Source: a virus. From it: a DNA stretch of 64,000 nucleotides. The position numbers and the translations under genes are program-made. Under the pieces are notes generated by a model that was given only the letters and a program-made list of their open reading frames with translations, made no database searches and was not told the DNA's origin. Shown here piece by piece: positions 12,723-57,933 of the stretch; the stretch's first letter is position 1; every line of letters begins with the position of its first letter. Location: positions 13,041 to 77,040 of the IMG/VR virus record IMGVR_UViG_3300033553_000372. One strand, given 5' to 3'.

Positions 12723-13253
12723 ATGACTATAAATATACCACAATTAAAACCTTCAAGAATTTATGCTAATGAGTCAAACTTTGGCTCATCCGCTGCCTCT
12801 TTTATTTGGAAGAAGATAGTTAATAATCAAAATTGGATAGAGAAGAATATTCCAATAGGCTACATTATTTATCTTTATTCATCTCAAACATTGGCTAATG
12901 GTTTTCCAATTGATTTGCCTAATCCAAATATTTGGGTAAAATGTAACGGAACATTAATATCAGATATCAATTCTCCTCTAAATGGACAAACTACACCAGA
13001 TTTAAGAAATAAATTTTTTAAAGGAAATTCTACTATAGGATTGCTTGGTGGACAATCGACAATTAATCTTCAACATAATCACGGTGGACAAACTGGCGTA
13101 ACAGATGATAGACAACCAGATGTTCAAGCAGACGCTGGTGGTGGATATAATACCGGAGCGCCTCATACGCACTCAATAAATAGTCAACTTTCTACTGTTG
13201 AGCCTATTATACCTCCTTATGTTGAGTTACAAATTTATATGAGGTACAAATAA
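12723..13253 (+). CDS. Tail collar domain protein (paralog 1)
   Basis: PIG...WVKCNG...TPDLRNKFFKG, HxH motifs, PPY..YMR end. Confidence 0.7.
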   Translation: MTINIPQLKPSRIYANESNFGSSAASFIWKKIVNNQNWIEKNIPIGYIIYLYSSQTLANGFPIDLPNPNIWVKCNGTLISDINSPLNGQTTPDLRNKFFKGNSTIGLLGGQSTINLQHNHGGQTGVTDDRQPDVQADAGGGYNTGAPHTHSINSQLSTVEPIIPPYVELQIYMRYK

Positions 13254-18979: not shown

Positions 18980-19096
18980 ATAAAATTTATATAAATCAAT
19001 AGTGTAACAAAAAGTTATATTTTTATAGTATCAAAAGTTAAACAAATGGTTAATGATCCATCCACAACAATTTACGCTACTTTTTGGAGGATTTCA

Positions 19097-19726
19097 ATGA
19101 AAAATCAAGAGACATATGTCTATTCTGAAGAACTGTTTAATTCATTAAAAGGCATCACTATTAAGAACATTCGCAGAGAAATGGGTGGAGTTGATTTAGA
19201 TCAAGCGGGTTATGATTATGAGGATTTAGAACAAGAATGTAGGATTTGGCTATTGGAAGCATGTAAGCAATTTAATCCAGAATGTGGAATGAAATTTCAT
19301 AACTTTTATTGGATCAAGATTTCTTCTAAATTAGGAAACTATAGAAACAAATTCCAACGTCAGCAGAAAAAAGGAAGAGTCAGAAACTTTACCTCAATAG
19401 GCGAATCTTTTTGGGGACTAGTTGGATTAGAATCTTCCGGTGAAGAATCTTCTGGTCATTATAGTTCATATATGGAATCAAATCATAATGATAATAATGA
19501 TGTTATTGATAGTATAATTGAAGTAAAGAAAATTTTACCATTATTGAATCCAACAGAAAAGGTTATTTACAATGATTTTTTCATTTTAGGTAAATCTTTA
19601 CCAGAAATCGTAAGAACTAATGAATTTAAAAAGAATGATAAGCCTCTCAAATATTATCAAATTAGAAAAATTATTGACGATTTGAAAGGTATTCATTCAA
19701 CATTAGTATTAAGTGAGTATACTTAA
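19097..19726 (+). CDS. Sigma70-family-like RNA polymerase sigma factor (1)
   Basis: Region-2-like EDLEQE..IWLLEA..QFNP..G.KF; region-4-like C-terminus. GGAGG RBS supports a start at 19097. Confidence 0.7.
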   Translation: MKNQETYVYSEELFNSLKGITIKNIRREMGGVDLDQAGYDYEDLEQECRIWLLEACKQFNPECGMKFHNFYWIKISSKLGNYRNKFQRQQKKGRVRNFTSIGESFWGLVGLESSGEESSGHYSSYMESNHNDNNDVIDSIIEVKKILPLLNPTEKVIYNDFFILGKSLPEIVRTNEFKKNDKPLKYYQIRKIIDDLKGIHSTLVLSEYT

Positions 19727-19740
19727 TTTAGGAGATACTT

Positions 19741-20172
19741 ATGATTAATCCAGAAAACCAATGTGCTCACCTTACGGATAAAGAAACTAAAAGTCTTTCA
19801 TTAAAAGAAATGTTTGATATGCAATTATCACTTCAACTAAATATGTTTGAAAGAGGCAGAGGTGTTGATTATGTTAATGGAACATTTAAAGAAAAGGTAG
19901 ATAATTTAACAATTCAAAAAAGAAACTTAGATACTGAGTTTGTTGAGTTAATTGAAAGACTTCCTTGGAAAGAGTGGAAAACATACTCTGCAGAACAATT
20001 ATCTGGTTGGACTTCAAAAGAACAAGAGCTTGAAACTAAGTTTGAATATGTAGATATGTTACATTTCTTCATTAACTTAGGACTATTAATTGGAATTTCA
20101 GCTGAAGAAGTTGGTCAATTATATTATTTAAAAAATAAAGAGAATTTCGATAGACAAGAAAGAGGATATTAA
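19741..20172 (+). CDS. dCTPase/dUTPase, T4 gp56-like (all-alpha NTP pyrophosphatase)
   Basis: NQCAHL, MFDMQ, WKEWK, KFEYVDMLHFFIN and YYLKNKENFDRQERGY closely match T4 gp56 as recalled (NECAHL; KFELVDIFHFVLN; YYLKNKHNFERQDNGY). Confidence 0.88.
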   Translation: MINPENQCAHLTDKETKSLSLKEMFDMQLSLQLNMFERGRGVDYVNGTFKEKVDNLTIQKRNLDTEFVELIERLPWKEWKTYSAEQLSGWTSKEQELETKFEYVDMLHFFINLGLLIGISAEEVGQLYYLKNKENFDRQERGY

Positions 20173-20556: not shown

Positions 20557-21057
20557 ATGATGATAGTTATTTGGATCGAAGGTGTAGACAATAGCGGAAA
20601 ATCAACCTTAGCTAAAAAGTTAATAGAAGCCTTTAATTTAGAATACATTCATTGCTCTAAACCAAAAACCGATAATCCGTTTTTAGAATATAAAGAAATG
20701 ATTCAACAAATTAATAAGCCCACAGTATTTGATAGAGGATATTGTGGCGAATTTGTTTATTCACAATTATGGAGAGGTGGACTATCTATGAAAATGGACG
20801 AGTTCCATCAATTAGATGATTTATGTAAAGAAAGATTTGGATTTAAAACCATTATTATTCATGCACAAGCTCCACTACATATCATAAAAGATAGGTGTAT
20901 TAAAGAAAAAGAAGACTTGCTTCAGTTAGATCAGATTGAAAAATGTCAGCACTTGTTTACTGAAATCATGTTTCATACAAAAATGCCAGTATTAGATTAC
21001 TTTTCTCATACTCAAGAGCCAAAAGATATAATCGAAAAGCTATCTGCATTTCTTTAA
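20557..21057 (+). CDS. Deoxynucleoside monophosphate kinase (thymidylate kinase fold)
   Basis: IEGVDNSGKST P-loop and FDR motif; sits between the dCTPase and the TS-fold gene. Confidence 0.85.
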   Translation: MMIVIWIEGVDNSGKSTLAKKLIEAFNLEYIHCSKPKTDNPFLEYKEMIQQINKPTVFDRGYCGEFVYSQLWRGGLSMKMDEFHQLDDLCKERFGFKTIIIHAQAPLHIIKDRCIKEKEDLLQLDQIEKCQHLFTEIMFHTKMPVLDYFSHTQEPKDIIEKLSAFL

Positions 21058-21084: not shown

Positions 21085-22032
21085 ATGACAAACTATTCCA
21101 CTGTGTTTAGAAATTGTGTTACTGAAATTATGAATCATGGCGATGAAGTCTCACCAAGAGGACAACTAACTAAAGAAAAATTATCTCACACAATTAAAGT
21201 TAATCCATTAAAGAGTATTTTTTCATCTCCTATTAGAGAAATAAATCATTCATTCTTATTTGCTGAAAATTTATGGTACCTTTCTGGAAGAAATTCAATG
21301 TTTCTTCTAACTCATTATAATAAAAATTACCATAATTTTGCAGATGATTCTATATTACAAGGCGCCTATGGCCCAATGATATTAGAGCAAATTAGGTATA
21401 TTGTTAATACGCTTAAAAAGGACAATGATTCGAGACAAGCTGTAATTTCTTTGTGGAGACCTAATCCATCTGAAGCAAAAGATAAACCATGTACGCTCAA
21501 TTTTCATTTTATGATTCGCAATGGTCAACTTAATCTTCATGTTACTATGAGATCAAATGATGCTGTTTGGGGACAAAATTATGATGTTCCATCTTTTAGC
21601 TTACTTTTATTAGTGATAGCTGGATCTCTTGCTGTCAAACCAGGACATTTATATTTAACGGCTAATAGTTTACATATATACGAAAAACACTTTGAATTAG
21701 CTAACGAAATAAAAAATTCTCAAGATTCTGATTATAAAGATGTAGAGTTTATTGAAGCACCAAATGAAACGCTTGAATGTCAACTATATTATGTTGAACA
21801 ATGCATCATGGCTCATTATCTTTTAGTTTCAAATAATTTTGATTTATTGAAATTTAATTCATTACCAAATTTTTACAAACAATATGTTGGAGCTATGGCT
21901 TATCATATTCAACATAAAGTTAAATCAGAAATATTAGTAGAAGATATTATCTATTATATTAGTGACGCAAATAGTTCTTTAGGTAATATGTTCAATGACA
22001 AATATAAATCGTACTTACTCAAATCTAAATAA
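21085..22032 (+). CDS. Thymidylate-synthase-fold enzyme, probable dCMP hydroxymethylase
   Basis: E..W, YG, SRQA, catalytic PC, MRSND..WG..YD (Asp where dUMP enzymes have Asn), SLHIY. Confidence 0.8.
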   Translation: MTNYSTVFRNCVTEIMNHGDEVSPRGQLTKEKLSHTIKVNPLKSIFSSPIREINHSFLFAENLWYLSGRNSMFLLTHYNKNYHNFADDSILQGAYGPMILEQIRYIVNTLKKDNDSRQAVISLWRPNPSEAKDKPCTLNFHFMIRNGQLNLHVTMRSNDAVWGQNYDVPSFSLLLLVIAGSLAVKPGHLYLTANSLHIYEKHFELANEIKNSQDSDYKDVEFIEAPNETLECQLYYVEQCIMAHYLLVSNNFDLLKFNSLPNFYKQYVGAMAYHIQHKVKSEILVEDIIYYISDANSSLGNMFNDKYKSYLLKSK

Positions 22033-25000
22033 TAAAAGCCATTTTTCTTGTGGAATTGGTATTGGTAAACCAATAGAGATTATCAATAAAGCAAAAGAAA
22101 AAGGTCTTAGTGGTATAGCTATAACAGACAGGTATACTATCGCCGGACTTCTTGATTTTTATTTTCTAGCAAAAAAAGAAAAATTTCCACTTGCTTTAGG
22201 TGTAGAACTTTTCTTTTTCGATTATTCTAATAAGATAAATAGAATTATTTTGATTGCTAAAAATCAAGAAGGATATTTTAATCTTTGTAAATTAGTTTCT
22301 TCTTCTCATAATAATATAGATATGCATAAAGTTCCTTGTGTTTCTTTTTACGATCTTAATGAATTTAAAGATTCACTTTATTGCTTAATAGACAATCATG
22401 ATTATCATAAAATATTAGAGCCTATCTTTAAAGAAAATTTAATATATGAAATTATTCTTGATAGTGATCATATTGACAAAAATAAATCTATTATAGAAAG
22501 CGGTAATAAATTCGTAATAACTTCAGACGCATTTATTCCTGATGAGACATTTAAAATACTTCAAGACATTATGATAGATAATGCATCATTTAATTCTACA
22601 AAAGAAGTTTTCACAGAGTCTAAACATATTTTATCCTTTAATGAATTAGTAGAAAAATGGAAGAATCATATAGATTACTTTCCAGCCCAAAAGTTTATAG
22701 AAGGAATCGACTTATCAAATTTAATATTAAATGAATGCTCAAAAATAGAATTAAAATTTAATGATCAAGTTGTAAATTTCCCACACCTCCTTCATCCATT
22801 TAATTTAGAAGGACATTCAAAAACAGAATTAGTTTGGAAAATTGCTAAAGAATATGGTAGACTTCAAGATAATTCTATCTATAGAGAAAGATTTGAATTT
22901 GAAATGGATGCTATTCAGAATAATGGTCGAGTAGATTTAATAGATTATTTTTTAGTTTTAGAGGATTTGTGTCGCTGGTGTAGAGAAAATGGAGTCATGG
23001 TTGGGCCTGGAAGAGGTTCTGGAGCTGGATCATTAGTTAACTATTGTCTTAAAATAACTCACCTAGATCCAATAAAATATAATTTGCTGTTTGAAAGATT
23101 TATCTCTAAAGGTCGTATTCAAATGGGTACGTTACCAGATATTGATTTAGATTTTTCTCACCCAGATAAAGCGAGAGAATATTTAATTGAAAAATATGGA
23201 TATGATAGAGTCATAAGAATAGGAACTGCTCAAACACTAAAAGCAGCTGGATCAGTTAAAGATGTAGCTAAGTTTTTAAATCCAGAATTAGATTTTATGA
23301 CAATTAATAATATCACAAGAACTTTTGGTGTTAAAGACCAAGATGAAACTGAGCTTCAATTCTTTGAAAGAAACTGTAATGAAAATGATGTTGCTAAATT
23401 ATTTTTTGACCAATATCCACAAATCAAAGAAAACGTTGGTAGATTATTAGGATACAATAGACAATATGGAACTCATCCCTGTTTTAGTGGCGATTCAACT
23501 ATACTTACAGATGAAGGTTTTAAATCTTTTAGTGAACTCAATGGTTCAATAAAGAAGGTTTTAACACCAGATGGTTGGAAAGAAGCTATTTTTTTTACAA
23601 ATGGATATAAAGATATTAACGTATTTAAATTTAAAAGTAAGCAATTATCTAACAAATCTTATTACACAAAAAATACTGAAGATCATTTATTTTTAAATAA
23701 CAAAAATGAATTTGAGAATTTATCCTCGAATTTTATTCCTTCTCAATTATTAGCTAACGATTTCGATAGATTATTTATTCTTTTAGGTTGGTTATGGAAT
23801 GATGGAACATATTTAAAAAATAAGAAGAGATTTTTTCTTTATCTTACAAAAGAAAAAGATGAGGCGATTTTATCATTATTAAATGAGAACGATTACGAGA
23901 TTACAAATAGATCTGATAGAGTGCTATTATCGCTAGAACTATCTAAACAAATTTTTAATTTAGGTTATTGCTGTGAATTAGTTAGAAATAAAACTTTTCC
24001 TATTAATTGGAATATTTGGACTTTAAAACAAAAGTTCTCTTGGTTAAGGGGTATGTTTAGTGCCAATGGCTGTGTGATCAGGTCTGCAATAACATTAAAG
24101 CTCACATCTATTCCTCTTATACAAGAAATTCATAATTTTTTAAAGGAAAATAAATACGTTAATGTTAAGCTTGGAATTGGAACTCAAGATTTAAAAGGTT
24201 GGAAATCTAGACCAACAGGAAGCTTTTATTTATCATTTTATGGTAATTGTCTTTTTTCTAAAACGATAGGGTTTTTACAAGAATATAAAAATTTAAAGAT
24301 TTATAATAAAATATCTTATATAAATAAAGAATTAATAATAGAAAATCAATTAGTATATGACTTTACTGTATTAGATGGATCTTGTCCTATTGGTTTAGTT
24401 AATGGATTATGGGCTCACAATTGTGGAATAGCTATAACACAAGATCCATTATTTAATTTTGCTCCACTAAGAAAAGTAAAAGGACAACATGTTTTAGAAT
24501 TTTCTGCAAAAAGTTGTGAATTATCTGGCATTATTAAATACGATATACTTGGACTAATGACATTATTATTTTTACAAAATTGTTGTGAATTAGTAGGCAT
24601 CGACGATATATATGATATACCACTAGACGATAAAGAAACATTTAAAGGCTTTATTGATGGACTAACAGCTGGAACATTTCAGTTTAATTCAGATGTAGCA
24701 ATAAATATTTTATCTCATCTCCCTTTAGAATTAATGAATCTTGATTTATTGTCAATGACAACTTCAGTTGGTAGACCTGGTCCAATGAAGAATCATCAAC
24801 ACGTTGAATTTTACAAGAGAGTTTTAGGAGATAAATTTTCTAGTCCGCCACATCCAGCTTTAGAAGAAGAATTGAGAGGAACTTATGGTATTATGATTTA
24901 TCAAGAATCTGTAATGAAGGCTTCACAAATTCTTGGAGGATTCACTTTAGCAGAAGCAGATGATATTAGAAAAGCAATGGGTAAAAAAGATCCAAAAGTT

Positions 25001-25990
25001 CTCATACCATATAAAGAAAGATTTATTAATCACTGTTTTCTAAAGTATCCAGAAACTAAATTTGATTTTTATGATAGTGATGGAAACAAAGTTTCTACTG
25101 TTGGAGAACATATATGGGAACTAATGGCTACTTTCTCAGCTTATGGATTCAATAAGTCTCATTCAATGTCATATGCATTAATAGGTTACTATTGTCAATA
25201 TTTAAAAACGCATTATCCAATTCAATGGTGGATCAGTTGTTTTAAATTTGTAGATTCAGAAAAATTAAGAGAATATTATTCTGTTGCAAAAGAATATTGT
25301 GTTGATCCAGATATTAATTTATCTGAGATGGATTACATTATAAATAAAAATAATAAAATTCAGTTTCCATTTTCTTCTATAAAAGGATTAGGTCCTAAAG
25401 CAACAGAAGAAATTTATAAATGTAGACCATTCGTTTCATTTGATGATTTTATAACTAGAGTAAATAAAACTAGAGTAAATAAAACTGTAGTTCAGCAGCT
25501 TATATTCTCAGGTTGCTTTGAATCTCTACATCCAAATCAAACTCAAATACTAATAGATCAATATTTTATAAGTAGAAAAGAAAAGACTCCACCTGAATTA
25601 ACAGCTTTAGATAAATTTCAATTAAAAGAAAAAAGGGTAAATGCGTTATCATTTCTACAAGATGATCTTTATGATACATATGTCGATAGATATAGCGATA
25701 CATTTACCACATATGATCAAGCATTGATTGAAAATAAAGCTCGAAAGTTTATTAATATATTAGGTACTATAAAGAAAATAACTTTAAAGAAGACTAAAAC
25801 TAATAAAGCATTTGGAACTGTTGAGGTTGAAAATGCAGGTGAAACTTTAAAACTTAGAATATGGGAAGATGAGATAGATTTCTACAAAGAAACTTTAAAA
25901 GATAAAGTAAGAGTTAAAATTAAATGTGGAGTTTCTGGATATAATGGAACAGTTCAATTAACATTAGTAAGTATGGAGATATTAAAATGA
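21995..25990 (+). CDS. dnaE: DNA polymerase III alpha subunit (family C) containing an intein
   Basis: PHP-like N-terminus, GPGRGSGAGS, PDIDLDF, KYDILGL, YQE, GFNKSH, C-terminal OB fold. Confidence 0.95.
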   Translation: MTNINRTYSNLNNKSHFSCGIGIGKPIEIINKAKEKGLSGIAITDRYTIAGLLDFYFLAKKEKFPLALGVELFFFDYSNKINRIILIAKNQEGYFNLCKLVSSSHNNIDMHKVPCVSFYDLNEFKDSLYCLIDNHDYHKILEPIFKENLIYEIILDSDHIDKNKSIIESGNKFVITSDAFIPDETFKILQDIMIDNASFNSTKEVFTESKHILSFNELVEKWKNHIDYFPAQKFIEGIDLSNLILNECSKIELKFNDQVVNFPHLLHPFNLEGHSKTELVWKIAKEYGRLQDNSIYRERFEFEMDAIQNNGRVDLIDYFLVLEDLCRWCRENGVMVGPGRGSGAGSLVNYCLKITHLDPIKYNLLFERFISKGRIQMGTLPDIDLDFSHPDKAREYLIEKYGYDRVIRIGTAQTLKAAGSVKDVAKFLNPELDFMTINNITRTFGVKDQDETELQFFERNCNENDVAKLFFDQYPQIKENVGRLLGYNRQYGTHPCFSGDSTILTDEGFKSFSELNGSIKKVLTPDGWKEAIFFTNGYKDINVFKFKSKQLSNKSYYTKNTEDHLFLNNKNEFENLSSNFIPSQLLANDFDRLFILLGWLWNDGTYLKNKKRFFLYLTKEKDEAILSLLNENDYEITNRSDRVLLSLELSKQIFNLGYCCELVRNKTFPINWNIWTLKQKFSWLRGMFSANGCVIRSAITLKLTSIPLIQEIHNFLKENKYVNVKLGIGTQDLKGWKSRPTGSFYLSFYGNCLFSKTIGFLQEYKNLKIYNKISYINKELIIENQLVYDFTVLDGSCPIGLVNGLWAHNCGIAITQDPLFNFAPLRKVKGQHVLEFSAKSCELSGIIKYDILGLMTLLFLQNCCELVGIDDIYDIPLDDKETFKGFIDGLTAGTFQFNSDVAINILSHLPLELMNLDLLSMTTSVGRPGPMKNHQHVEFYKRVLGDKFSSPPHPALEEELRGTYGIMIYQESVMKASQILGGFTLAEADDIRKAMGKKDPKVLIPYKERFINHCFLKYPETKFDFYDSDGNKVSTVGEHIWELMATFSAYGFNKSHSMSYALIGYYCQYLKTHYPIQWWISCFKFVDSEKLREYYSVAKEYCVDPDINLSEMDYIINKNNKIQFPFSSIKGLGPKATEEIYKCRPFVSFDDFITRVNKTRVNKTVVQQLIFSGCFESLHPNQTQILIDQYFISRKEKTPPELTALDKFQLKEKRVNALSFLQDDLYDTYVDRYSDTFTTYDQALIENKARKFINILGTIKKITLKKTKTNKAFGTVEVENAGETLKLRIWEDEIDFYKETLKDKVRVKIKCGVSGYNGTVQLTLVSMEILK
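23480..24421 (+). mobile_element. Intein (314 aa) with LAGLIDADG homing endonuclease domain in DnaE
   Basis: Begins CFSGDS after extein GTHP and ends NGLWAHN before a +1 Cys (CGIAI); VYDFTV block F; LAGLIDADG-like LGWLWNDG and LRGMFSANG. Confidence 0.93.
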
Positions 25991-35536: not shown

Positions 35537-36124
35537 ATGGCTAAGATGGCTAGAAATAAGACAAGGAATGCTTTACTAGCTTTATCAGAGGCAGAGTCTA
35601 ATAAAATTGGATTAGAAGTTGAAAGATTAATTCATAATGAAATGTCGTTTATTGTTAATAAATATATTTATAAGTATAAAAACGCAGCAGCCGATACTTT
35701 TGGTTGGGACTCAGACGATTTACTTCAACATATTCGTATACTTATGTGGAGAGGTGTAGCCACTTTCAATCCAGAAAGAAAATTGAAAATGACTACATAT
35801 TTATCATCGATTCTTTATTATCAAATGGGTAATCTCTCAAAAAAGATTTCATCAAAGAAAAACTCTCAATCAAAACTTTATTGCCCAGAAGTATTTTTTG
35901 ACTCAGATGAAATGATAGACTTTACAACAGCAGAAGATTGGTTATTATATGCTAGAAAATTTGAGCATCTAATTGGTAAACTAACTGATTTAGAAACTAA
36001 AGTATTAGTGCAACACTTAATATATGGACATACACTATCTGATATGGAAACAAAACTGTCAGTAAAAAAAATAGACCTAATTAAATCAATTAAAGTTATT
36101 AAAATAAAAATGGAGAGCATTTAA
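35537..36124 (+). CDS. Sigma70-family-like RNA polymerase sigma factor (2)
   Basis: DDLLQ..RI..W.G...FNP...K.TTYL region 2; LTDLE..VL...G.TLSDM region 4. Confidence 0.72.
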   Translation: MAKMARNKTRNALLALSEAESNKIGLEVERLIHNEMSFIVNKYIYKYKNAAADTFGWDSDDLLQHIRILMWRGVATFNPERKLKMTTYLSSILYYQMGNLSKKISSKKNSQSKLYCPEVFFDSDEMIDFTTAEDWLLYARKFEHLIGKLTDLETKVLVQHLIYGHTLSDMETKLSVKKIDLIKSIKVIKIKMESI

Positions 36125-50105: not shown

Positions 50106-50218
50106 TATCAATCACTTAGTGACTCTATATTAATTAATGAGTATACTGTAAATTAATGTTTACATGTATGATTACATGTGTTATAATGAATTAACAGCAA
50201 CAAAACAAAAGGTTGATT
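50106..50218 (+). promoter_or_regulatory. Early promoter copy 2
   Basis: TATCAAtcacTTA 50106-50118; TTTACA 50159-50164; N17; TGn-TATAAT 50182-50187; conserved leader. Confidence 0.85.
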
Positions 50219-51476: not shown

Positions 51477-51587
51477 TATCAATCACTTAGGGCTCTTATA
51501 TTAATTATGAATAGTCTGTAAATAATTGTTTACAATTCAATAAGAATATGTTATAATGAATTAACAGCAACAAACAAAAGAGGCTTT
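51477..51587 (+). promoter_or_regulatory. Early promoter copy 3
   Basis: TATCAAtcacTTA 51477-51489; TTTACA 51529-51534; N17; TGn-TATAAT 51552-51557; conserved leader. Confidence 0.85.
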
Positions 51588-52702: not shown

Positions 52703-52915
52703 ATGCAATCTAGCAAGCCTATTCTAAAAGTTTCAACTAACGAACTATATAACGATTTCTTAAAAAATGCTAAATTAATTGATGAGGACTTGAATGATGA
52801 CTGTTCTTATGCTAAACAATTAAAGAACGATTATGATTACTGGCAAAGAAACGTAATGAATAAAGAAGCTCAAATGCAATTAAGAGATTCATTAAATAAA
52901 TGGAAAACAAAATGA
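52703..52915 (+). CDS. Hypothetical protein
   Basis: AAGGA RBS; overlaps the galE start. Confidence 0.55.
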   Translation: MQSSKPILKVSTNELYNDFLKNAKLIDEDLNDDCSYAKQLKNDYDYWQRNVMNKEAQMQLRDSLNKWKTK

Positions 52916-53892
52916 AGTTCATAGTTACCGGCGGATCTGGCTACATTGGCTCTCATATGTGTAAACTCTTAAGATCAATGGATCATGAAGTATGTATCAT
53001 TGACGAAATTAAACCTAAACATAAATATTATTCAGATTATTTTCAATTTAATATTGGTCATAGTTCCATAATTGGAGGATTCTTAAGTTTTATAAAGCCG
53101 GATGGAGTGTTTCATTTTGCAGCTCATTCAATAGTTCCAGAATCAGAACAAAATCCAATGAAGTATTACCTTAATAACGTGAATGAATCTATTTCTTTTA
53201 TAAATGAAGTAGTAAAAGCTAATGTTCAACATTTTATATTCTCATCTACTGCGGCTGTATATGGAACTCAGACCTCAGAAAATATGTTTCAAACTCATTT
53301 TAGAGAAGACGATAGAAAGAATCCAATTAATAGTTACGGTAAAACTAAATCTATTATTGAAGATGTTTTATTAGACCTTTCTTCTAAAGGTAAATTAAAA
53401 ACTACGATACTTAGATACTTTAATGTTGCCGGTTGTTGTCCTGAATCGACAATAGGTGAAGACCATGATCCAGAAACTCACATCATTCCAAAAATTATTA
53501 AAGAAATATTGAATGGAAAAGATGAAGTATTTATCTATGGTAATAAATACGAAACAATAGATGGAACTAATGTGAGAGATTATGTTCATGTTGAGGATTT
53601 AGTTGAAGCACATTGGAAAGCTTTCATGTTAATGACCAATACATCATCGGCTTCAAATTTAATAATGAACATCGGAAGTCAAAAAGGCTTTACAAATCTT
53701 GAAGTAATTAGTACTATATTGAAAGTAATGAAATCAAATTGCAAAATAACTATTGCTCCACCAAGACACGGTGATCCTGATAGTTTAGTTGCTATAACTT
53801 CATTGGCTAAAAATCTTATAAACTATGAGCCTGAATTTGATCTTGAAGATATGATAAGGCATACATATAATTATTTAAAGGAAAGAAAATGA
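52900..53892 (+). CDS. galE: UDP-glucose/GlcNAc 4-epimerase
   Basis: VTGGSGYIGSH, HFAA...V.ES, SSTAAVYG, YGKTK, LRYFN, RDYVHV.DL, R.GDP. Confidence 0.93.
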   Translation: MENKMKFIVTGGSGYIGSHMCKLLRSMDHEVCIIDEIKPKHKYYSDYFQFNIGHSSIIGGFLSFIKPDGVFHFAAHSIVPESEQNPMKYYLNNVNESISFINEVVKANVQHFIFSSTAAVYGTQTSENMFQTHFREDDRKNPINSYGKTKSIIEDVLLDLSSKGKLKTTILRYFNVAGCCPESTIGEDHDPETHIIPKIIKEILNGKDEVFIYGNKYETIDGTNVRDYVHVEDLVEAHWKAFMLMTNTSSASNLIMNIGSQKGFTNLEVISTILKVMKSNCKITIAPPRHGDPDSLVAITSLAKNLINYEPEFDLEDMIRHTYNYLKERK

Positions 53893-55052
53893 AAATTCTT
53901 ATAATGAAACTCTGTACTCCAATTACTTTTACTAATAAAAAGAATATTACAGGATCATTTAAAGAAATAGAAAACTTCTGTAAATGTCTTAAATCAAGTG
54001 GATACGAATACACAGTCCTTACCTCAAGCAAATACTTATCTGAGTTTGATAAAGCTATTGATATAGTAGATTATGATCTAAAAGAGATCGATACTTTTGA
54101 TGCAATCTTTTGTTTCAATAATACCTTATCTGCTTATGGCGGAAAGATCAACAACAATACTCTTTCAACTTATTTCTTAATGAACTACACTTCAAAAGTA
54201 AAAAATATTCCTACATTTTATTTAGGCGCAGACACTCAAATCAAAATCTCTTCTCTAACGGATTGGCTAAATCATAAAAATTCAAAATTGGAGAGTCCAA
54301 TTCTTCCTTATGAATATTGTTCTGATTCAAAAAATAGTTCTCAATTCTTAAAGTCTTTAGTTGTTGATCAATTAGACATAGATGGAAAAGACCTTAATCT
54401 TTTGAGTCCAGTTTATCAGACAGAAAATAAATTAGATTGGTCTGGTAAAGAAAATGAGTTTAAAAATGTTTATTCATTTCCTTTTTATATCACTCATTTA
54501 TTTGATATGAATAATATTGATAAAACAATATTGTCAGTAACTAGCTTAGATAGAGACATTCTCTATTATGGTAATAGTAGAAATGGAAAACGTACTAAAA
54601 AGATGGTTAAGTTCTACGATCATAATTCTAGTCTTAATATTAATTTTATTGGAAAGTTAGAAGGCATTAGAGAAAAGTTTAAGAATTTAAAAGATGGGCA
54701 ATTCTTAGGTCCAATGCCAATGAAAGAATTGTACAGTGAGATTAAAAAGTCTTTAGCTCATTGTTATATCTCTGATCCACAAAATGAGAATAGAATGTGG
54801 ACACCAAGATTATTTGAAGCCATCATGAATCGAACTGTAGTCTTTATAGATATAGATAATGATCCAAATAGAAGTTTATTTCCTAGTTTCTTTTATGTTA
54901 GCTCATTTCAAGAACTAGAGCAAAAAGTAAATTTAATTAAAACTGAACAAGGATTGAGAGAACAAATGTTGGAGCTTCAATATAAAACTATCCTTGATAT
55001 TTTTAACAATAGTGGTAATCTATTTGAAAAGATATTTTCAGATCTTAAGTAA
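53889..55052 (+). CDS. bgt: DNA beta-glycosyltransferase, T4 BGT homolog
   Basis: Colinear with T4 BGT as recalled: YGGKIN (FGGKPN), YLGAD (YLFTD100), YYGNSRNGKR..KMV.F (YGGSFR191SGQR195ESKMVEF), TPRLFE (TLR269VWE272), IDIDND, FYV, LREQMLELQ. Confidence 0.85.
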   Translation: MKILIMKLCTPITFTNKKNITGSFKEIENFCKCLKSSGYEYTVLTSSKYLSEFDKAIDIVDYDLKEIDTFDAIFCFNNTLSAYGGKINNNTLSTYFLMNYTSKVKNIPTFYLGADTQIKISSLTDWLNHKNSKLESPILPYEYCSDSKNSSQFLKSLVVDQLDIDGKDLNLLSPVYQTENKLDWSGKENEFKNVYSFPFYITHLFDMNNIDKTILSVTSLDRDILYYGNSRNGKRTKKMVKFYDHNSSLNINFIGKLEGIREKFKNLKDGQFLGPMPMKELYSEIKKSLAHCYISDPQNENRMWTPRLFEAIMNRTVVFIDIDNDPNRSLFPSFFYVSSFQELEQKVNLIKTEQGLREQMLELQYKTILDIFNNSGNLFEKIFSDLK

Positions 55053-55060
55053 TAATAAAT

Positions 55061-55257
55061 AAAGTTCGAGCTGAACGATCTAAAACTTAGCGGTAATCCT
55101 ACCTTACAGACGCAGCAGTAGCGTAACATGTCGTCGCACAGTTTGTCTTCCATATCTTTGCAAAGTAGACGCTAAAAGGTGAAAGACCGTTAGTTCTGTG
55201 TTGAATGAGAACGAGAAAAGCGAACACTGGATGCTGGCATAACATTATAAGTATGCT
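55061..55257 (+). ncRNA. Putative structured non-coding RNA
   Basis: GC-elevated intergenic segment with nested helices whose G-U pairs favour the + strand (see findings). Confidence 0.5.
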
Positions 55258-55259
55258 AT

Positions 55260-55529
55260 TTATCTCATCATTCTTGAATATTTATTGAGACTTCTCTTTA
55301 CTTTAGCTTTACGCTCTCTTTTTTTAGTATTCATTTTTTCTTGAATGTGTTTGAATACCAACATATCGAGAATTAAACTCAGTTTAATTGATAGTTCTAT
55401 TTTTGATTGTCCTTCATTATCTTTAATCCAAAATTCTAAGTATCCTTGTCTTATTTCAATCTCACTTATGCCAATTAGTTTCTTAGTAACTTTAGTTTCG
55501 CCTTCAAGGATAGTGAGTTTCACTTTCAT
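55260..55529 (-). CDS. Hypothetical basic protein
   Basis: ATGA-coupled in a minus-strand operon. Confidence 0.55.
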   Translation of the reverse strand: MKVKLTILEGETKVTKKLIGISEIEIRQGYLEFWIKDNEGQSKIELSIKLSLILDMLVFKHIQEKMNTKKRERKAKVKRSLNKYSRMMR

Positions 55530-55912
55530 TTAATACTCTCCATTTCAATTTCTTCAGAAACATATCCTTTCTTAGATAATTTCTTCATAAAAATAGTTAA
55601 CAACTTTGCCTCTAATATTTTATGCTCTGGAGTATGATCCCAATAATACATGTGAGCCAACTCATGACTAAGAGTACAAAGGATATCCATAGTTGAATAA
55701 TACTTTTTCTTTGAATCAGAATAGTAGTTGACTTGAATAGACATGCGATAGTGGCCGTTTTTGTATTTCCAGAGTTGACCATAAATTCTATGTGTTGTAT
55801 CCGGTCTACCGTGGATTGATGTGATCCTTTTTAACTTTGATAAACTATCTATTAGTTTACTAGAAGCTATAAGGTACTCCTCAATCCATTGTAAATCTTT
55901 ACTTATAATCAT
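55526..55912 (-). CDS. Zincin-like metallopeptidase (HExxH)
   Basis: TLSHELAH...H..EH. Confidence 0.65.
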   Translation of the reverse strand: MIISKDLQWIEEYLIASSKLIDSLSKLKRITSIHGRPDTTHRIYGQLWKYKNGHYRMSIQVNYYSDSKKKYYSTMDILCTLSHELAHMYYWDHTPEHKILEAKLLTIFMKKLSKKGYVSEEIEMESIK

Positions 55913-57030
55913 ATACTCTTTTTGTAAAAGACACCATTAACTAATGCCCATTCAGGATGAACAGTTATTGGATTAATAATTGTTTGTTTTAAATTCTCAT
56001 TAATATAAGCAAAAAGAAAACCTAAATTCCAACGATTAGCACCACCAATATATTCAGCATCAGTCATATGCATACCAGGAGTTTGGCACCAAAAGACTGG
56101 TCCACGTAAAATGTCATAATTCGATTGAAGATTAACTGTGTGATGATGGCCATTAGTTCCAGATAAACCTTTTAGTCCAGAATCAGGCTCATGACTACAA
56201 ACAAAAGCATCAAAATAAATCTTATAATTTTTCTTTAACTCTTTATTTATATCACCTTTAGAGTAAGCTTTAAAATCTAGTTTTGAGATCCAATTAATCT
56301 TAAATTTATCTAATCCAAAGATTTCAGCAAATCCAATATCCAATACATCACTCATAAGAACTCTCAAATGAGGCGATCTATCAGCTATATGTCTCAATAG
56401 TCTGAATTCATGATTACCCATAATGAAATCTATTTGAGCATTAGGACACGCTTCTCTGATTTGAGCAAAAATAAAGTTATGGACAAAATCAAATCTCTCT
56501 TTTAAATGAATATGTCTAGGATCCATTGAAAAATTAGAGAACTCATAAAGATCAAAGATATCACCGTTGAAAACAATTACATCCGGTTGAACTCTTCTTG
56601 CTTGATCCACGAAGACCGACCAGCAAAACTGGTCGATCTCTAAATCGTGAAGATCCGAGCATACCATTATCGTCTTGATATGGCCCGGTTTAAACTTCTT
56701 TTCGTACTTATTATGGTACGGATAAACTTCCGTTTGGAAGAACTTTATATAATGATCAAATGAAGCGTGTTTAGCAATGTCCTTTTCTAGTTTTTGTTGA
56801 GGTCTTGAAAGTTCCAACTTAGCTTGTTTTCTAAACTCACTAAATGTACCGAAATGTCTGTCATACGATCCATCAGAATATGATCCCATCTGTCTGTAGA
56901 AGTTTCTACTAATAAATTTGTCTGGAAATTCTTCCTGCAATGCTCTCAAATCAGCAATACATTCTTCTGCTGTTGCATTAACTTTTAATTTTTCACGTCT
57001 TTCTGATAAAAGCTTATCGTCTTTTGCCAC
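55909..57030 (-). CDS. Calcineurin-like metallophosphoesterase with N-terminal helical domain
   Basis: SDLH, NGD..D, GNHE, GHHH, W..GF. Confidence 0.8.
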   Translation of the reverse strand: MAKDDKLLSERREKLKVNATAEECIADLRALQEEFPDKFISRNFYRQMGSYSDGSYDRHFGTFSEFRKQAKLELSRPQQKLEKDIAKHASFDHYIKFFQTEVYPYHNKYEKKFKPGHIKTIMVCSDLHDLEIDQFCWSVFVDQARRVQPDVIVFNGDIFDLYEFSNFSMDPRHIHLKERFDFVHNFIFAQIREACPNAQIDFIMGNHEFRLLRHIADRSPHLRVLMSDVLDIGFAEIFGLDKFKINWISKLDFKAYSKGDINKELKKNYKIYFDAFVCSHEPDSGLKGLSGTNGHHHTVNLQSNYDILRGPVFWCQTPGMHMTDAEYIGGANRWNLGFLFAYINENLKQTIINPITVHPEWALVNGVFYKKSI

Positions 57031-57109: not shown

Positions 57110-57598
57110 ATGACAGAATTTAGATTAGAAGATTGGATGGATAAAAAATTTTATAACAGAATAGAATGGCTAATGGGCTTTGCAGAACAAGCTTCTAAAA
57201 AATCTCATGATGAGCAAACAAAAGTTGGAGCGTGCTTAGTTCATTTAGATGGATCAACACCAATTGCTATAGGCTATAATGGATTTGTGAGAGGAGCAAA
57301 AGATAAAGATTTGCCTAAAATAAGACCAGACAAGTATAAATTTATTGTTCACGCTGAAGCAAACTTAATTGCAAATTGTGCAAGATTAGGTATTAGTATG
57401 AAAGGATGTGAGTTATATTGTACTTTAAGTCCATGCATTAGCTGTATGAGATTATTGTTTCAATGCGGCATAACCAAAGTATATGTGAAAGAACTTTATA
57501 AAGATTTTGAAGAAATTAGAAAAATGCAAGATATTCAAATAGAAATGAAACAACTAGAAAATGATTATTATTTACTAGAATACAAGGAAGCAAAATGA
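57110..57598 (+). CDS. dCMP deaminase
   Basis: KVGA, GYNG, HAEAN, SPCISC. Confidence 0.9.
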   Translation: MTEFRLEDWMDKKFYNRIEWLMGFAEQASKKSHDEQTKVGACLVHLDGSTPIAIGYNGFVRGAKDKDLPKIRPDKYKFIVHAEANLIANCARLGISMKGCELYCTLSPCISCMRLLFQCGITKVYVKELYKDFEEIRKMQDIQIEMKQLENDYYLLEYKEAK

Positions 57599-57933
57599 AA
57601 GGACAATGGAGCAAAGAAGATTTATTTCTTCACATGGAAGAAGTCACAGATAAAATGAAAGACATCTGTCGTAAAAAAAATAATGACTACACCGGAGTAG
57701 GTGTTTCTCCTTTTAGTAACTTCGAAAGAGTAGAACAAATGGGAATATGTACTACTGAACAAGGATTCTTGACTAGGATGACGGATAAAATGAGCCGTAT
57801 TGCTTCATTTGCTTCTAAAGTTGAACTACAAGTAAAAGATGAAGGAGTTGAAGATACTTTGATTGATCTTGCAAATTATAGTTTATTAATGTTAGGCTAC
57901 ATACGTCAACAAAAAGAAAAAGAAAATGTCTAA
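57595..57933 (+). CDS. All-alpha nucleotide-modification-associated protein (DUF1599/MazG-like)
   Basis: KKNNDY, PFSNF, R..DK..R, DTL.DLANY. Confidence 0.7.
   Translation: MKGQWSKEDLFLHMEEVTDKMKDICRKKNNDYTGVGVSPFSNFERVEQMGICTTEQGFLTRMTDKMSRIASFASKVELQVKDEGVEDTLIDLANYSLLMLGYIRQQKEKENV

Follow-up and report, generated by a model that had tools for sequence, protein, structure and literature searches.

A GalE-type epimerase gene coupled to a T4 beta-glucosyltransferase-family gene in an uncultured phage: a candidate cassette for galactose-type sugars on hydroxymethylcytosine DNA

Which restriction, CRISPR and type IV (modification-dependent) nucleases can cut the DNA of a phage depends on the sugars that it carries. 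The beta-glucosyltransferase (BGT) of phage T4, which moves glucose onto 5-hydroxymethylcytosine (5hmC, or hmC), is a workhorse reagent for 5hmC labelling; its gene, b-gt, abuts gene 42 in the T4 genome. A distant relative of this enzyme is predicted in IMG/VR virus record IMGVR_UViG_3300033553_000372, where its gene follows directly on one for a uridine diphosphate (UDP)-hexose 4-epimerase, GalE. The pair, galE-bgt, is described here as a candidate two-gene cassette for DNA hypermodification. The stretch analysed, referred to as the window, covers 64,000 nt (positions 13,041 to 77,040 of the record).

Epimerases have been linked to DNA glycosylation before. In the subclass II clusters of the phage MT/TET (5mYOX) pathways, which combine an epimerase with a glycosyltransferase (GT), experiments on 5hmC published in 2023 showed that most of the GTs are inactive without the epimerase (bioRxiv 10.1101/2023.12.21.572611). 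The products carry a hexose (Hex), N-acetylhexosamine (HexNAc) or hexuronic acid (HexA), the stereochemistry of which that paper leaves unresolved. The BGT-like GT-B enzymes tested there (subclass III) were not epimerase-paired, and the same survey merely lists 'epimerase' among the neighbours of ThyS-associated GT-B contigs. Galactose is also known on phage cytosine: the DNA of Rhizobium phage RL38JI and the Pootjesviridae contains galactosyl-(glucosyl)n-5-hydroxycytosine, with the galactose base-proximal (PMC13326640). Epimerase-dependent glycosylation of 5hmC is thus already known from the GT-A/TET systems, though not for the BGT family, and both of these reports reduce the novelty of the proposal made in a first-pass annotation of the window.

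The virus record is complete (77,040 bp with 141-bp terminal repeats, 31% GC) and comes from a cold-spring metagenome. The phage is uncultured, and no close cultured relative was found; its large terminase shares no more than 25% identity with that of any isolate. Coordinates given below are positions in the window, except those prefixed L091. The two open reading frames (ORFs) noted in the first pass are both present on the + strand, at 52900-53892 (330 aa) and 53889-55052 (387 aa), and the ATG of bgt overlaps the TGA of galE in an ATGA at 53889-53892. An AAGGA-type Shine-Dalgarno sequence lies inside galE, 7-9 nt upstream of the bgt ATG. The start of GalE needs correction. A second ATG at 52912 (MKFIVTGG, 326 aa) is the start in the database gene call and in homolog alignments, and is more likely than that at 52900. 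This ATG in turn overlaps the TGA of an upstream 70-aa ORF, again as ATGA, so that three ORFs are chained by such overlaps. The strong promoter match at 51529-51557 is likely to be the start of the operon that ends in galE-bgt, as judged from its consensus; a second promoter-like site of identical grade lies at 50159-50187.

The product of bgt belongs clearly, if distantly, to the T4 beta-glucosyltransferase family. This resemblance had been noticed in the first pass, and it held when the profile and structure searches proposed there were run. In phmmer the 387-aa protein matched T4 BGT (1bgt) with an E-value of 4.7e-17 over residues 61-366, and it matched phrog_7922, 'beta-glucosyltransferase', at 1.5e-26 over residues 1-372. 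The N-terminal domain model PF09198, which was built from close T4 relatives, gave 13.1 bits, under its gathering cut-off of 27, and this places the protein among the distant members. A predicted model (pLDDT 90.3, pTM 0.89) gave six top Foldseek matches that were all T4 BGT entries, with E-values of 1e-22 to 5e-17 and TM scores of 0.68-0.81; the best had an E-value of 1e-22 and TM scores of 0.72/0.78, and the next GT-B family followed at 6e-9. The sole low-confidence region of the model is an insertion of ~21 aa (residues ~131-160).

The residues with known functions in the T4 enzyme are retained, as first noted for all but Glu22. T4 E22, D100, R191, R195, R269 and E272 correspond to E26, D115, R231, R235, R307 and E310 of the window enzyme, with D115 in the motif FYLGAD. 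Among 110 members of the BGT family R235 and R307 do not vary, and D115 and E310 are each shared by 90% or more. The segment ahead of the Arg269 equivalent, which reads SDPQNENRMWTPR in the window and GDKNYNDNFITLR in T4, had been quoted correctly as a difference that might reflect another donor. It varies among all family members, including relatives without a known epimerase, and does not serve as support. The subfamily to which the window enzyme belongs is tiny. With a cut-off of 1e-30, an exhaustive HMMER search of 1.8 billion representatives yielded only the window enzyme itself and two further proteins, both 34% identical to it. A maximum-likelihood tree groups five subfamily proteins with 100/100 support; the window enzyme branches there as sister to the remaining four, and its branch is ~3x longer.

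The upstream gene encodes a predicted epimerase of the GalE type. It scores 304 bits with the curated GalE equivalog TIGR01179 (cut-off 262.3) and 4e-45 with PF01370, and also matches phrog_540, while other sugar-enzyme models of the short-chain dehydrogenase/reductase (SDR) family score it far under their cut-offs. The closest solved structures are all UDP-glucose 4-epimerases. The motifs GGSGYIGSH (NAD), SST, YGKTK (Ser/Tyr-x3-Lys) and RYFNVAG align with those of E. coli and other solved GalEs, and the NAD-binding, catalytic and YFN motifs are invariant among the closest homologs. The positions of E. coli Lys84 and Asn199 are occupied by Ser and His. Leu stands at the position of the E. coli gatekeeper Tyr299 (Tyr299/Cys307), in the sequence GDPDSL. 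The first-pass annotation quoted this region correctly and took the Leu as a hint of N-acetylated substrates. The same Leu is found in 4/4 of the best-matching solved bacterial GalEs, and a bulky Leu at the gatekeeper characterizes the Group 1 (Glc/Gal-only) trypanosome enzymes (PMC10482301), whereas the literature links bifunctional epimerases, which also act on GlcNAc/GalNAc, with small residues such as Cys, Ser and Val. The nearest homolog of the window GalE is 53% identical and the remainder at most 44%, and the base composition of galE (29% GC) is that of the phage itself, fully ameliorated. Recent capture from a host was ruled out by these identities and this composition, and GalE is an old resident of the phage.

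The acceptor base can be predicted from a second gene set. Upstream of the DnaE-type polymerase gene lie, in order, a dUTPase/dCTPase-family gene, a small ORF, a P-loop kinase gene and a gene for a thymidylate synthase (TS) homolog. Residue diagnostics published in 2026 (PMC13326640) take, in E. coli ThyA numbering, N177D as the sign of a dCMP substrate, L143D/E as that of a hydroxymethyl product and D169N as that of the flavin-dependent 5-hydroxy-dCMP synthases. The TS homolog has Cys136 at the catalytic Cys146, Asp133 at L143, Asp159 at D169 and Asp167 at N177. The states of L143/D169/N177 are thus D/D/D, as in T4 gp42 and in the relative L006 described below; the alignment controls came out as published, with E/N/D in RB69 gp48, a 5-hydroxycytosine (5hoC) synthase, and D/D/N in the SPO1-type dUMP hydroxymethylase. 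The enzyme is therefore predicted to make 5-hydroxymethyl-dCMP (hm-dCMP), neither hm-dUMP nor 5-hydroxy-dCMP, although the L143D product rule (hm-dCMP vs 5-methyl-dCMP) is correlative. Together with the dCTPase-like protein and the deoxynucleoside monophosphate (dNMP) kinase, the gp42-type signature makes replacement of cytosine by 5hmC in the phage DNA a sound inference. This gene set, and the position of BGT beside the synthase gene in L006, back the hmC acceptor of the first pass independently.

Two other acceptors were considered and rejected. 5-Hydroxymethyluracil, in a base-J-like pathway, was prompted by a dCMP deaminase and a DUF1599 protein encoded elsewhere in the window, but the TS homolog has Asp and not Asn at the N177 position. 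5-Hydroxycytosine is excluded by the retained Asp169. The nearest cultured TS homologs, from phages PW916 and AXL3, are 42% identical and uncharacterised. The TS homologs of Pseudoxanthomonas phage PW916 and of the Manatee Spring contig MW202621 bear the names 'deoxyuridylate hydroxymethyltransferase' or 'pyrimidine hmase' in their annotation; both have Asp at the N177 position, which predicts dCMP as the substrate, and the dUMP annotation looks wrong.

Relatives of the phage place the BGT family close to hmC synthesis. Scans of viral contigs for BGT, with the single protein and with the subfamily alignment, found one contig alone, L006; a metagenome scan for BGT found nothing, and a TS-anchored scan found no additional members of the lineage. 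L006 is a 26-kb fragment in which the genes for DnaB, primase, sigma-like protein, dUTPase_2, kinase, TS homolog, DnaE and RecA are syntenic with those of the window, their products being 30-56% identical. The BGT homolog of this fragment is encoded between the kinase and TS genes, an arrangement that mirrors b-gt and gene 42 in T4 and firmly links the BGT family with hmC synthesis. The window, by comparison, has only 27 nt between its kinase and TS genes, and bgt is found 32 kb away, coupled to GalE. The two BGT proteins are 32% identical, as against 43-56% for the flanking replication proteins. No GalE was seen on L006, which is uninformative since the fragment is 25% complete.

The site that galE-bgt occupies differs in content between relatives. 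In the related contig L091 the phosphoesterase and portal protein are 72% and 58% identical to those of the window and the flanking genes are kept, the 70-aa ORF among them. Where the window has galE-bgt, this contig carries, on the - strand at L091:10734-11317, ORFs of 61 and 133 aa of unknown function. Because these two small genes are unrelated to galE-bgt, the slot is variable, a cargo hotspot, and galE-bgt is a lineage-specific cassette within it. A further relative, L090, has a portal protein 73% identical to that of the window, and its sequence ends just short of the slot.

What the transferase uses as donor can be approached through the rest of the genome. Family searches with valid positive controls found neither a GalU-type nucleotidyltransferase nor a GT1- or GT2-family transferase in the complete genome, and there is no second BGT-family gene in it. 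By these searches the BGT-like enzyme is the only recognisable phage-encoded consumer of UDP-sugars. Without GalU, GalE could not enlarge the UDP-hexose pool and could only alter its configuration; its coupling to the sole glycosyltransferase of a genome that lacks GalU makes a dedicated-donor role the most economical reading. The first-pass proposal that a dedicated epimerase implies UDP-Gal or UDP-GalNAc as donor is strengthened in this respect, while neither of the details offered for it, the segment before Arg269 and the gatekeeper Leu, turned out to be diagnostic. GalE as a dedicated supply for the transferase is favoured here by a modest degree, and the sugars on the phage DNA would probably be of the galactose rather than the glucose type. 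A donor switch in BGT is suggested by the ~3x longer branch, by the 32% identity set against 43-56% and by the presence of other genes in the L091 slot.

Several points weigh against this interpretation. No feature recognised in either protein tells which sugar is used; in particular, the gatekeeper Leu is non-diagnostic for the substrate group and gives no pointer to GalNAc. The assignments of the kinase and the dCTPase are weak by Pfam score. Because the slot carries cargo, the co-location of galE and bgt could be partly accidental. The GalE reaction is reversible, with an equilibrium that favours UDP-Glc. Recurrence of the pair in other phages, which the first-pass annotation had named as a test of its proposal, was not observed. 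In a survey of viral GalE that took the best 80 of 473 relatives and 6 kb around each locus, none of the 80 had a BGT-family gene within that distance. Conversely, no epimerase gene lies beside the BGT homologs of the T4-like phages examined, of Enterococcus phage Planchet or of L006, so that homologs usually lack such a neighbour. The missing recurrence removes comparative support, yet is compatible with a lineage-specific donor switch.

A separate observation from the same survey concerns two loci, L028 and L031 (IMG/VR 3300025887_000010 and 3300006803_000027). They are the sole 2 of the 80 with a TS-family gene, ~4 kb from GalE, and have no BGT-family gene nearby. They might represent a further sugar-on-DNA system, one that relies on some other transferase.

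Other readings of the locus can be set against the same data. Plain T4-style glucosylation, in which beta-glucosyl-hmC is made from UDP-glucose and GalE pulls UDP-Gal back to UDP-Glc during the burst of DNA glucosylation, is unlikely. It would agree with the established equilibrium of GalE, with the full set of UDP-binding and catalytic residues shared with the glucose-using T4 enzyme, and with homologous transferases in relatives that have no known epimerase. However, a phage in need of more UDP-Glc would be expected to encode GalU, which this genome lacks, and T4 and all BGT-bearing phages examined do without an epimerase. The UDP-Gal pool is normally far below the UDP-Glc pool, so that little would be gained, and the accelerated divergence of the window transferase would stay unexplained. 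The ATGA coupling to the only glycosyltransferase of the genome, the fully ameliorated composition and the predicted co-expression with a DNA-modification enzyme from an early-type promoter make it improbable that GalE serves auxiliary metabolism or host takeover, acting on host envelope polysaccharide (e.g., for superinfection exclusion or receptor masking) and merely sharing slot and transcript with bgt. Such a role is nevertheless in keeping with the variability of the slot, with the stand-alone GalE-like genes of cyanophages and other phages, and with the frequency of GalE-like genes in viral contigs that have no BGT or TS gene nearby (473 relatives, with BGT at none of the best 80).

An enzyme of the SDR family could also make a different C4-epimer donor (UDP-GalNAc only, UDP-GalA or UDP-L-Ara), which would give HexNAc-, HexA- or pentose-hmC. 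The published epimerase-dependent phage GTs add HexNAc and HexA besides Hex, the non-aromatic gatekeeper is compatible with N-acetylated substrates, and Ser and His replace the E. coli Lys84 and Asn199. Against this, TIGR01179 is passed with a margin and the other SDR models are not approached, and with the nearest solved structures all being UDP-glucose 4-epimerases such a donor has little likelihood. Finally, the acceptor of the BGT-like protein might be something other than DNA (a protein, teichoic acid or a small molecule). In favour of this are the versatility of GT-B enzymes and a PF09198 score under the gathering threshold, and in the published survey most GT-containing viral contigs lacked an obvious base-modification partner. 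This is very improbable, given that T4 BGT is the best fold match, ahead of other GT-B folds by 14 orders of magnitude, that the L006 homolog is embedded between the kinase and hm-dCMP synthase genes, and that a complete hmC precursor pathway is predicted in the genome.

If GalE does supply the transferase with its donor, the cassette may work as follows. Before replication, dC would be converted to 5-hydroxymethyl-dC by the dCTPase-like enzyme, the gp42-type hm-dCMP synthase and the dNMP kinase, as residue signatures and gene order indicate, and the phage DnaE-type polymerase would incorporate the hmC precursor. By homology to T4 BGT, the transferase would be an inverting GT-B enzyme that flips hmC out of the duplex and moves the sugar from the UDP-sugar onto the hydroxymethyl oxygen, with Asp115 as the base and Arg231, Arg235, Arg307 and Glu310 holding UDP. 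The translationally coupled GalE would convert host UDP-Glc to UDP-Gal, and possibly UDP-GlcNAc to UDP-GalNAc, and so give the transferase a donor that the host may supply unreliably. The expected product is beta-galactosyl-hmC or, less likely, beta-GalNAc-hmC. The benefit is likely to be protection against the nucleases of restriction and CRISPR systems, among them enzymes that recognise glucosyl-hmC. The cassette, at the end of an early operon and in a cargo slot, would have superseded an ancestral BGT gene, which in the relative L006 is found next to that of the hm-dCMP synthase. In its fullest form this scenario is tentative: a BGT switched to UDP-Gal or UDP-GalNAc, gained or moved along with an epimerase of its own, would have replaced the ancestral glucosyltransferase gene and produced the first natural beta-galactosyl-hmC genome, one that evolved to evade defences directed at glucosyl-hmC.

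The features of the cassette and of the precursor genes are collected in Table 1. The full-length DnaE-type (family C) polymerase gene at 21995-25990 starts within the TS-homolog gene, with an overlap of 38 nt; an hmC-substituting phage that uses a homolog of Pol III alpha is unusual against the family-B paradigm of T4. Two sigma-70 region-2-like proteins are encoded at 19046-19726 and 35537-36124 (weak Pfam matches), which suggests that phage-encoded sigma factors may control the middle or late programme.

Table 1. Coordinates of the galE-bgt cassette, its promoter match and the pyrimidine-pool genes
Feature	Position	Strand	Basis
Dimeric dUTPase/dCTPase-family protein (PF08761), candidate dCTP-clearing enzyme (T4 gp56 analogue)	19741..20172	+	family match
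P-loop (d)NMP kinase-like protein, candidate hm-dCMP kinase (T4 gp1 analogue)	20557..21057	+	weak thymidylate-kinase match under Pfam cut-off; position and synteny
Thymidylate-synthase-fold enzyme, candidate 5-hydroxymethyl-dCMP synthase	21085..22032	+	T4 gp42/MilA residue signature
Sigma-70-like promoter match, TTTACA-17-TATAAT with TG, 11/12	51529..51557	+	consensus match only
70-aa ORF, function unknown	52703..52915	+	45% identity in relative L091, there left edge of variable slot
GalE, predicted UDP-hexose 4-epimerase, 326 aa (330 aa from alternative ATG 52900)	52912..53892	+	TIGR01179, PF01370, phrog_540, PDB GalE alignments
Predicted T4 beta-glucosyltransferase-family DNA glycosyltransferase (GT-B, CAZy GT63-like), 387 aa	53889..55052	+	sequence, profile, fold
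dCMP deaminase, accessory pyrimidine-pool gene near portal	57110-57598	+	conserved in L090, L091
DUF1599 'nucleotide modification associated domain 1' protein, accessory pyrimidine-pool gene	57595-57933	+	conserved in L090, L091

The gene bgt is followed by a non-coding spacer of ~200 nt (55053-55259) with ~36% GC, above its surroundings, and with no counterpart in L091. A structured RNA in this GC-rich spacer (55056-55259) was considered and rejected, as neither strand folded better than its dinucleotide shuffles (z +1.2 / 0.0); an Rfam search of the window, the spacer included, gave no match. Beyond it, at 55260-57030 on the - strand, lies a convergent three-gene unit that is conserved in L091. 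It comprises an 89-aa ORF and the genes for a protein of 128 aa, which has an HExxH-like motif and matches WLM/BSP peptidases weakly, and for a metallophosphoesterase of 373 aa. The last has an N-terminal HNH-associated repeat (phrog_20266), and copies 45-48% identical to it are found in three high-GC viral contigs (L092-L094).

Among described systems T4 is the nearest. The window enzyme shares the GT-B fold of T4 BGT (PDB 1bgt/1j39; GT63), which is its best match in both sequence and structure, and conserves the functional residues; both phages encode a gp42-type hm-dCMP synthase, predicted in the case of the window. The two enzymes differ in that identity is 20-25% and that the window enzyme carries the insertion of ~21 aa after the catalytic-Asp region. 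In contrast to T4, bgt is found in a non-T4-like, DnaE-encoding phage of 77 kb, in translational coupling with galE. If a donor of the galactose or GalNAc type were confirmed for a natural enzyme of the BGT family, the 5hmC toolkit would be broadened, and a minimal two-gene cassette would be shown to re-code the sugar on an hmC genome.

Phages that glycosylate 5hoC resemble the window in other respects. RL38JI and the Pootjesviridae also combine a precursor made by a TS homolog with phage-encoded sugar-nucleotide enzymes and place galactose on a modified cytosine, as is inferred for the window. The GalE-like epimerase of related Pootjesviridae has 33-35% identity to the window GalE, and its gene is not adjacent to a GT. 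The acceptor in RL38JI is 5-hydroxycytosine (D169N synthase, ether link), and the glycosyltransferases are different. The arabinosyl-5hoC systems of RB69, DLP3 and HY126 (PMC13326640) likewise keep their own enzymes for supply of the nucleoside diphosphate (NDP)-sugar beside DNA glycosyltransferases, together with a TS-homolog precursor enzyme. They differ from the window in the sugar (arabinofuranose), the acceptor (5hoC), the supply route (isomerase, kinase/uridylyltransferase and phosphatase) and the transferases.

The subclass II clusters share with the window a sugar epimerase adjoining a DNA GT, and their acceptor is 5hmC, which for the window is predicted. Their GTs are of the GT-A type (JGT/TarP-like), and their 5hmC arises after replication through a C5-methyltransferase and TET. 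The window, unlike these, combines a GT-B enzyme of the BGT family with a predicted pre-replicative route to 5hmC through a TS homolog, and its complete genome has no C5-methyltransferase (PF00145, searched with a valid control). If the donor role of GalE proves true, the published principle of epimerase dependence would be extended from the GT-A/TET systems to the classical GT-B/ThyA-homolog pathway.

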